DNA from: a virus
Taxonomy: Duplodnaviria > Heunggongvirae > Uroviricota > Caudoviricetes
Direction: 5' to 3' (one strand)
IMG/VR virus record: IMGVR_UViG_2695420478_000009
DNA length: 4,112 nucleotides
Each line of letters opens with the position of its first letter. Position 1 is the first letter of the stretch. The notes below the pieces were generated by a model. It had not been told where the DNA came from. It saw only the letters and a list, made by a program, of their open reading frames with translations, and made no database searches. The translations under genes were made by a program, and so were the position numbers. This document shows positions 52 through 1,461 of this stretch, one piece after another.

Positions 52-181
52 GCAAATGTTAACTGCTGCCTGGTTAACATTTGCTGAAAAAGCCAGTTAA
101 CATTTTTTTCGCACAACAAACTGAATAATAAAGATAAAAACCGCAAAAATGCCCGGGCAGCCAGTTAACATGTTAACTGGC
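52..181. promoter_or_regulatory. Array of five GTTAAC-core half-sites (consensus about GCCAGTTAACAT) including a perfect 22-bp palindrome at 160-181; candidate terminase small-subunit (cosB-like) or dimeric regulator binding sites
   Basis: GTTAAC cores at 58, 73, 96, 164 and 172. There is a 12-bp inverted repeat at 52-63 / 73-84, and GCCAGTTAACATGTTAACTGGC at 160-181 is its own reverse complement. Confidence 0.5.
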
Positions 182-204
182 CTGAAACAGGAATTTTTTC
201 TCTG

Positions 205-271
205 CATGAGACGGGGGGCGGTGTCCGGAGCGATCGTTTTTCACGCCGGATGATACCCCCCCCCGCTCGGG
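205..271. other. GC-rich quasi-symmetric element with a C9 homopolymer, immediately 3' of the HNH gene; candidate cos (cosN-like) site
   Basis: GAGACGGGGGGCGGTGTCCGG...CGTTTTT...C9 resembles the lambda cosN region (ACG GGGCGGCGACCT CGCGGGTTTTCGC) as I remember it. HNH genes typically sit directly beside cos in HK97-like phages. Confidence 0.3.
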
Positions 272-678: not shown

Positions 679-725
679 ATGTCATCGAAAAACCGGACCC
701 GCAGAACCACAACCCGCAATATCCG
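679..725 (+). pseudogene. 5' fragment (first 15 codons) of the ylcI-like gene, cut off at the repeat junction
   Basis: Matches 1503-1549 with one synonymous difference. After 725 the frame runs into unrelated sequence (the tail of the provided ORF 619-909). Confidence 0.6.
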
Positions 726-873
726 AGCGGCAATGGCTGACGCTGTTTTGTTTTTCCCGGACATGAGCGCCAGCGCAAATTTTCGTTTTTGCGTTGTCAG
801 CACAGCCTCCTCCCGGGTCCATAACGCACTCAGCCGGGTATGGTTCAGCCCATTTTTCCCGGCGTCTCATGCC

Positions 874-1003: not shown

Positions 1004-1026
1004 CTGAAACAGGAATTTTTTCTCTG

Positions 1027-1095
1027 CATGAGACGGGGGGCGGTGTCCGGGGCGATCGTTTTTTTCGCCGGATGATCCCCCCCCCCCGGGGCGGG
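1027..1095. other. Second, sequence-diverged copy of the GC-rich cos-like element (C11 homopolymer at 1077-1087)
   Basis: Homologous to 205-271 but carries several substitutions and a 2-nt longer C-run. Confidence 0.3.
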
Positions 1096-1461
1096 TCACA
1101 GTCCGATGATATCGTCTGCCCTGCCATGACCTCCGGACACCTCCGGCAGCGTCGGGTCCGGCATACCACTCGCCGTTTCACTGACTGACTTCTGGCGATG
1201 GCATTCGGTACAGAGCGTCCAGAGATTCGTCTCCTCATTACCACCACCGAACTGAAGTGCAATGCGGTGATCGAGTTCACTGTCACAGAGGTCAACCACA
1301 CGACCACAGAGACAGCACTGCCCGGCATCCCTGAGCCAGATATGACGCTTGAGGGAAACACGTGCACTGCCACTGACACGACGCTGTTCCCCCTTCAGAA
1401 TATTCACCCGTCGGGTGTTCAGAGTTTTGATTCTGCTCTGGAGTGTACGAAGCTCAGCCAT
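1096..1461 (-). CDS. Phage HNH endonuclease, 121 aa (copy 2, variant C-terminal tail)
   Basis: The first 92 residues are identical to copy 1 and the nucleotide differences there are all synonymous. The C-terminal 29 residues carry 5 replacements. Confidence 0.85.
   Translation of the reverse strand: MAELRTLQSRIKTLNTRRVNILKGEQRRVSGSARVSLKRHIWLRDAGQCCLCGRVVDLCDSELDHRIALQFGGGNEETNLWTLCTECHRQKSVSETASGMPDPTLPEVSGGHGRADDIIGL

Follow-up and report, generated by a model that had tools for sequence, protein, structure and literature searches.

The five GTTAAC-containing sites at positions 52–181 of the window, the 4,112-nt stretch of viral DNA that we analyzed, most likely belong to a known functional class, the recognition sequences for the small terminase subunit (TerS) that lie beside cos. 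Judging from sequence comparisons, we consider it likely that TerS recognizes these sites and that they make up a candidate cosB-like array. The array lies on the genome-internal side of the predicted cut, between the cut and terS. A sequence-only reading of the same DNA had proposed a cosB-like array for a multimeric DNA-binding protein, and that proposal is supported by the position of the sites near the cut, their fixed offset from it, their retention in satellites and the way they track one TerS family.

The repeat array and the predicted cos cut

The window represents the late region of a Stx-converting lambdoid prophage of the BP-4795/2851/JLK-2012/Lys8385Vzw group, with the minus strand as the phage sense. 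On that strand the order is holin, a YdfR-like gene, lysozyme, Rz/Rz1, an HNH endonuclease, about 290 bp of non-coding DNA, terS, terL and the capsid genes. The cos site and the array occupy the non-coding stretch between the HNH gene and terS, whose intact copy starts 20 nt before window position 1. Between Rz/Rz1 and the HNH gene, about 1.3 kb from the array, the strand opposite to the late genes carries a DUF3950 gene. The features are as follows, with offsets counted from the predicted cut.

52–63 (core 56–63), plus strand: distal site 5, GCAAATGTTAAC, at +148 to +155; one arm of a 12-bp inverted repeat
73–84 (core 73–80), minus strand: distal site 4, GCAAATGTTAAC, at +131 to +138; the other arm of the 12-bp inverted repeat
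92–106 (core 96–103), minus strand: distal site 3, AAATGTTAACTGGC, at +108 to +115
104–159, no strand assigned: A/T-rich spacer with T-tracts (minus strand CATTTTTGCGGTTTTTATCTTTATTATTCAG), read from the sequence
160–181, no strand assigned: palindrome nearest cos, GCCAGTTAACATGTTAACTGGC, perfect 11+11 (22 bp), at +30 to +51
172–177 and 164–169, no strand assigned: abutting GTTAAC half-sites of the palindrome, at +34 to +39 and +42 to +47
182–210, minus strand: conserved block just inside the cut, CTCATGCAGAGAAAAAATTCCTGTTTCAGG; 210 is predicted to be +1 of the mature left end
211–220, minus strand: predicted 10-nt 3' cohesive end, CGCCCCCCGT, assigned by homology
221–264, minus strand: right-end (upstream) half of cos, with the GGACACCG core (221–229), CGATCG and a homopolymer run (plus-strand C9, 256–264)
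272–637, minus strand: HNH endonuclease copy A, 121 aa, Pfam HNH E = 7.5e-7
679–726, plus strand: first 16 codons of DUF3950, joined at 725/726 to a truncated terS
726–803, minus strand: truncated 5' end of terS, 26 codons, GTG at 803
874–1003, no strand assigned: five-site array in copy B of an 822-bp duplication, identical to 52–181
1004–1087, minus strand: second cos core, with predicted cut 1032/1033, cohesive end 1033–1042 and a C11 run (1077–1087)
1096–1461, minus strand: HNH endonuclease copy B, differing from copy A mostly in 229–371

The 8-mer GTTAACAT occurs 10 times in the window, five times in 52–181 (56–63 and 170–177 on the minus strand; 73–80, 96–103 and 164–171 on the plus strand) and again at +822 from each of these, within 874–1003. 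Only 0.10 copies would be expected in the window, and a count of 10 was reached in none of 200 shuffles. The 10-mer CAGTTAACAT is exact in four of the five sites while the fifth (71–80) reads TGGTTAACAT, and the extended consensus over the five is A-M-A-T-G-T-T-A-A-C-Y-R-G. The five clustered copies, the inverted repeat with 12-bp arms (52–63/73–84, complementary at 12 of 12 positions) and the perfect 22-bp palindrome (160–181) had all been pointed out from the sequence, and each was borne out. A motif search over related phages, suggested at the same time as a check, found copies almost exclusively inside arrays, which held 25 of the 26 copies across 102 kb of DNA from related phages, satellites and hosts, and five of six in 50 kb of BP-4795. 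The 17 kb of host DNA contained none.

The spacings of the distal sites (68, 23 and 15 bp) follow no helical phasing, which counts against the cosB-like reading. The spacer at 104–159 could possibly provide an intrinsic bend between the proximal and distal sites, as suggested by its T-tracts; the IHF consensus WATCAANNNNTTR was not matched within it even when one mismatch was allowed, a second point against that reading. A further inverted repeat of 15 nt (36–50/204–218, 87% complementary, with a perfect 10-nt core CGTCTCATGC/GCATGAGACG) joins sequence across the predicted cut to sequence just past the last GTTAAC site. It is imperfect in BP-4795 and absent from the satellites, no compensatory changes were seen among 59 sequence variants, and by this comparison it is probably fortuitous.

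We placed the cut by homology to virion-derived ends. Phage Lys8385Vzw has 3' cohesive ends with cos CGCCCCCCCT according to a PhageTerm result (PMC7946995), and its TerS is 97% identical to that of BP-4795. Its virion-derived record ends in CGCCCCCCCT (in longer form, GGACACCGCCCCCCCT) and starts with CTCACGCAGAGAAAAAATTCC (also given as CTCACGCAGAG and CTCACGCAGAGAAAAAATTCCCGTTTCAGGGCAGTTAACATGTTAAC). The more distant Burkholderia phage Bcep176, whose TerS shows about 37% identity, agrees with this: its linear record has 10 nt and then CTCACGCGCAGA at its end. The cut is thus predicted at 210/211, and the staggered pair of nicks at 210/211 (top strand) and about 220/221. Counted from there, the palindrome occupies +30 to +51 and the other three sites +108 to +159, and terS starts at +230. 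The sequence-only reading had placed the array between a cos-like element and a minus-strand gene; this holds, with the predicted cut 30 bp from the palindrome and terS as the gene. The right-end half of cos is conserved in the family and in satellites, and the same core is present in D3-type phages.

The C run of the plus strand (G on the phage strand) before cos measures 9 residues at 256–264 and 11 at 1077–1087. Among relatives its length varies from about 6 to 13 residues, while its position is constant across the family and in satellites. It may be a termination (cosQ-like) element or an HNH-related one.

An 822-bp tandem duplication (1–725 vs 823–1549) has left the window with a complete cos, an array and an HNH gene in each of its two copies. 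At the junction (725/726), DUF3950 codon 16 is fused to terS codon 26. The copies are identical over 1–228 and 823–1050 (228/228), then differ at 21 positions in 229–371 and at five in 372–725, a mosaic pattern whose boundary, as read from the alignment, is the point at 229 where divergence starts. Complete conservation of the array between copies had earlier been offered as an argument for the motif; the identity stands, but it is uninformative about the motif because it extends equally over the spacer and flanks. The junction as one piece was absent from 5,426 complete E. coli genomes, and the duplication could reflect recombination of two related prophages or an assembly artefact.

Motif position in related phages and the protein that may read it

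Relatives were collected by a TerS-alignment scan with one genome per species, which yielded 80 loci from Enterobacterales, Pseudomonas, Burkholderiales, Brucella and Acinetobacter. Motif offsets in these loci were anchored on the conserved post-cut block, the counterpart of 182–210, which is conserved over all 80. Nearly all share one layout: before the predicted cut, a G-run and then GGACACCGC or TAGACCGC; after it, CTCACGCNCAGA, an A/T run, TCCC, a Shine-Dalgarno sequence and then TGTTAAtggctTTAACA across the terS ATG. The motif counts were as follows.

Non-enterobacterial loci, GTTAA at +33 to +37: 61/61
Non-enterobacterial loci, TTAAC at +44 to +51: 52/61
Enterobacterial loci, GTAAACATGTTAAC with GTTAAC at +41/42: 17/19

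Background frequencies of the motifs are 0.0011 and 0.0003 per position. The offset from the cut to the proximal site is therefore constant in 78 of 80 loci (61/61 non-enterobacterial and 17/19 enterobacterial). The enterobacterial offsets are exactly those of both GTTAAC sequences in the window palindrome: the GTAAAC/GTTAAC pair of 17 of the 19 enterobacterial relatives matches it, and the second half-site overlaps the terS ATG. Several lineages have extra copies of the motif, either in a 13-bp register (e.g. L048, L055 and L058) or scattered over a spacer of greater length (L067 and L088).

The GTTAA/TTAAC pair usually spans the terS start codon, and there it keeps a rare TTA codon. The leucine codon within the motif is TTA in 64 of 80 loci, compared with 2.8% of the 4,566 leucine codons in terS and terL. 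For loci with a GC content above 0.55 the figures are 44 of 56 and 1.4% (binomial 6e-71, without phylogenetic correction), and TTA at the terS start is kept even in hosts exceeding 60% GC. Four loci read ATGGCCTTTAAC (M-A-F-N), so that TTAAC is kept in a shifted frame. These codon data make a clear case that the constraint acts on DNA and not on protein, with a DNA motif restricting the coding sequence. The start of terS is displaced from the cut in E. coli (by 229 nt), Proteus (L025), Pantoea (L027), Paraburkholderia (L067) and Cupriavidus (L088); the cos-proximal pair stays put in these loci and the leucine codon becomes CTG, CTA or TTG. By this comparison, the position of the motif is tied to the cut and not to the start codon.

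The N-terminal 56 residues of TerS matched Pfam Terminase_2 (residues 2–57, E = 1.7e-8, 35.7 bits against a cut-off of 26.1), and the same match was found in 30 of 30 diverse TerS relatives. A profile of the family matched helix-turn-helix (HTH) domains in the PDB, those of SF6 (4zc3, 2cmp, 3zqp), Pam5 (21di) and 7joq, with E of about 1e-4. The small terminases matched in this search are ring oligomers that carry many HTH domains, and by analogy the TerS studied here probably forms a ring oligomer as well. The way in which nonameric small terminases of the HTH type recognise DNA remains a matter of debate (PMC7672466, PMC11331095). In a model for the TerS of PaP3, an HTH-type nonamer, a dimer of adjacent HTHs binds a cos site roughly 20 bp long (PMC7672466), an arrangement that fits the 22-bp palindrome.

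Co-occurrence within the family cannot separate TerS from the HNH endonuclease or TerL as the binding protein, because an HNH protein of one family is encoded upstream of terS in 77 of 80 loci (the other three loci are truncated or masked). The main alternative is that the HNH endonuclease or TerL binds the GTTAAC sites as part of the nicking complex, and the HNH protein does accompany the motif as strictly as TerS does. It is reportedly required for cos cleavage in HK97-like phages. We regard this alternative as unlikely in view of the D3-type Pseudomonas phages, whose HNH protein matches the family profile with E = 4.9e-25 and is 34% identical to that of the window. These phages also have the same GGACACCGCGCCCCC (also GGACACCGC) cos core and a related TerL N-terminus, yet no GTTAA/TTAAC pair was found between the cut and terS in 49 distinct sequences. 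Their TerS is not of the Terminase_2 type, and their post-cut sequence is unrelated to that of the window family. From this contrast, the left half of cos changes with TerS while the right half follows the HNH protein; since the D3-type phages amount in effect to one lineage, the contrast is supportive but not conclusive. Binding by HNH or TerL is also at odds with the distance of 30–160 bp between the sites and the nicks, and the repeats and palindrome would suit an oligomer with many HTH domains. In the D3-type phages (L212 and L217–L286), modular exchange is seen exactly at the cos cut.

Satellites and the remaining alternatives

A scan of viral contigs for the palindrome core returned 68 loci of the family with 59 distinct sequences. 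All 68, diverged variants included, have five GTTAAC sites each, and the palindrome is invariant in the 59 distinct sequences and in four satellites. One of these satellites, L168 (1–11150), itself among the 68 loci, is an 11.7-kb element that encodes an integrase, Ash, a D5-type primase, SSB and lambda E-like and D-like capsid proteins. No terS, terL or HNH gene was found in it, and we classed it as a PICI-like satellite for that reason. Three similar elements (L214, L215 and L216; about 1–6700), likewise devoid of terminase and HNH genes, adjoin yejO or thiM in complete E. coli genomes. The satellites also carry PerC, and their capsid genes are either E/D-like or a ClpP-protease/MCP fusion. 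The fusion of L215 showed no similarity to the BP-4795 MCP, which leaves cos as the only link to the helper.

All four satellites have a cos core at the end of the element together with the five sites, whose spacing is unchanged. Identity between the window and L168 was distributed as follows.

Five 8-mer cores: 38/38
Rest of the array: 58/92 (63%)
Beyond the last site: 18/51 (35%)

Similarity stops just past distal site 5. The spacer at 104–159 is 68% identical, against 35% beyond the array, and the core of distal site 3 is the same in variant phages and satellites despite differing flanks. The satellites keep the sites without an adjacent gene to regulate, which points to a cis-acting packaging signal. 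A conserved ORF of 93 aa lies directly upstream of cos in the satellite (L168:10114–10395).

These identities also bear on the possibility that the distal sites were left behind, without function, when the 5' end of terS was duplicated repeatedly, or that a host architectural protein binds them. In favour of relics, a tiny ORF beginning MLT opens at each minus-strand ATGTTAAC (three such short ORFs are present), and a single ancestral segment in Kluyvera and Salmonella phages aligns both to the palindrome region and to the Shine-Dalgarno/start region of E. coli terS. We nevertheless find both possibilities improbable: the cores are identical between phage and satellite at 38 of 38 positions but the flanks at only 63%, five sites are kept in all 59 distinct sequences including diverged ones, and the short ORF is broken in the satellite (ATG TTA ACT GCC TGA). 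A host protein would have to be shared from Acinetobacter to Brucella, and the IHF consensus is missing.

A role of the inverted repeats at the RNA level, for instance as a structured leader in the late transcript that controls terS translation, is quite doubtful. Minus-strand RNA from 40 to 215 does fold to -57 kcal/mol (z = -4.4), and the TGTTAA-N5-TTAACA pair flanks the terS start codon in most relatives. The sequence itself is invariant, however, which leaves no covariation, and in six non-enterobacterial loci the first half-site persists although the second is gone. The distance from the pair to the start codon downstream is 100–190 nt in E. coli, L067, L087 and L088, the satellites retain five sites without a downstream gene, and the outer stem (36–50/204–218) is not preserved in BP-4795 or the satellites. 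A search of Rfam found no known RNA family.

An operator or promoter for a transcription regulator such as the DUF3950/YlcI protein, which had been raised earlier for the adjacent small protein, is hardly credible: palindromic repeats do look operator-like, DUF3950 is encoded about 1.3 kb away in the window and there are weak plus-strand promoter-like matches (composed of the motif itself), but DUF3950 was detected in none of the 80 motif-carrying loci and in no satellite, the terS strand has no sigma-70 promoter-like site, the region is inside the late operon, and the motif is fixed to the cut site and not to any gene start. The count of 0/80 excludes a DUF3950 operator as a general explanation.

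Two other kinds of repeat array came up in other viral contigs. Low-GC (33–40%) contigs of uncultured phages (L174:6760–7110, L197, L167, L108, L172, L104, L109 and L191) contain four to six direct repeats of TTAACATGTTAACTAT, with a C-rich hairpin (CTATCCCC...GGGGATAG) beside them and a terL-like gene immediately downstream. These contigs matched none of the annotated phages, and their repeats may be a counterpart of the present array, serving packaging or acting as a promoter. In L123:11250–11650, part of a viral contig with 39% GC, an AT-rich stretch is flanked on either side by GTTAAC repeated every 10 bp (GTTAACggacGTTAACggacGTTAAC), an iteron-like or operator-like arrangement unrelated to a cos context.

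Proposed mechanism, comparison with known systems and significance

We propose that the array is the TerS recognition region, functionally cosB, of an HNH-assisted cos with 3' overhangs. The N-terminal HTH of TerS (Terminase_2 type), probably within a ring oligomer, would bind the GTTAAC half-sites, and by analogy two neighbouring HTH domains would occupy the palindrome at +30 to +51. With TerS held there, TerL and the HNH accessory protein would be positioned over the cut, a set number of base pairs away. The three distal sites (+108 to +159) would be reached across the A/T-rich, probably bent spacer and would engage further HTH domains of the same oligomer, by wrapping or looping. The complex so stabilised would sit on the left genome end, which would be packaged first. 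In this scheme, TerS as the binder, the wrapping or bending of the DNA and the stoichiometry are what we infer.

Several of these elements have counterparts in lambda, where cosB (R3-I1-R2-R1, bound by gpNu1) is likewise a TerS array made of repeats, placed inside the genome end between the nick and terS, with a critical cos-proximal site at a strict distance and distal sites in mixed orientation (PMC9026076). In both, terS starts about 190–230 bp from the end. Lambda differs in its 12-nt 5' overhang, in working without an HNH protein and in its Nu1-type winged HTH, whereas TerS here matches Terminase_2 only. The 16-bp R sequences are unrelated to GTTAAC, lambda has an IHF site while the window spacer lacks the consensus, and the proximal element of the window is a perfect palindrome of two half-sites. 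On these comparisons the array functions, as proposed, like cosB but is not a homologue of lambda cosB. The cosB of N15 has one cos-proximal site (PMC9026076), as do most relatives of the window family.

A comparison with HK97, which had been suggested for the cos region, showed that the HNH-cos layout is common to both while the TerS type and the recognition element differ. Like the window, HK97 has an HNH gene (gp74) directly upstream of cos. Its overhang is 10 nt long and 3', which is what homology predicts for the window, and its TerS, as proposed for the window, recognises DNA within some tens of bp of the left end, where there is an A/T tract (PMC11331095). Its TerS (gp1) is not of the Terminase_2 type and binds a single 15-bp site at +15 to +29 over an A-tract, with the DNA threaded through the channel (PMC11331095), and the HK97 cos is without a GTTAAC pair. 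Because HK97 TerS binds in about the same place, the conserved A-tract block at +8 to +23 of the window may, by analogy, be part of the TerS site or even its primary element.

PaP3 and the SF6/SPP1 G1P family share a homologous N-terminal HTH domain with the window TerS, but the match covers only about the first 56 residues, with no similarity detected in the oligomerisation core. SPP1 pacL and pacR combine repeated boxes with bent DNA. SF6 and SPP1 package by the headful mechanism (pac), whereas defined cohesive ends are reported for Lys8385Vzw, the phage with the 97%-identical TerS; PaP3 differs in its 5' overhangs and in being without an HNH protein. We searched the literature for GTTAAC in connection with terminase or cos, PaP3, SF6 and SPP1 included, and found nothing relevant; nor did the search find a description of the motif or of cosB for this phage group.

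The satellites resemble Gram-negative PICIs of the EcCICFT073 type, which also have a helper-type cos at their end, near capsid-like or decoration-like genes (PMC9026076, PMC6092414). They differ from lambda-helped PICIs, which replace the helper cosB and retarget TerS through Rpp (PMC9026076, PMC6092414): the satellites here keep the helper's five sites unchanged.

A broader scenario, which we put forward tentatively, is that the TTAAC inverted pair is an ancient code of one HTH-type TerS family, fixed to cos from Enterobacterales to Burkholderiales, Pseudomonas, Brucella and Acinetobacter. Since the pair normally overlaps the terS start codon, TerS binding could couple the initiation of packaging to terS autoregulation. 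In the Stx-type E. coli phages the pair would have been duplicated to five sites and uncoupled from the start codon, and satellites would have copied the array intact, to be packaged by the unmodified helper TerS without an Rpp-type factor. The array itself probably arose by duplication of an ancestral segment that comprised the site and the start.

The phage family carries Shiga-toxin genes and is widespread: of 5,426 complete E. coli genomes, more than 5,000 have sequence similar to part of the late region, about 1,160 match 80% or more of the window, and about 1,250 contain the cos and terS region. The points of interest are the deep conservation at the DNA level over the terS start, the five-copy expansion in Stx-type phages and the intact arrays of satellites. 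Biochemical and structural studies would also have a favourable substrate in a perfect 22-bp palindrome with auxiliary sites, kept across host phyla. With cos and its recognition sites defined, it would become possible to annotate the cos ends of thousands of prophages, to predict which satellites and plasmids can be mobilised, and to design packaging-defective or cos-plasmid tools.
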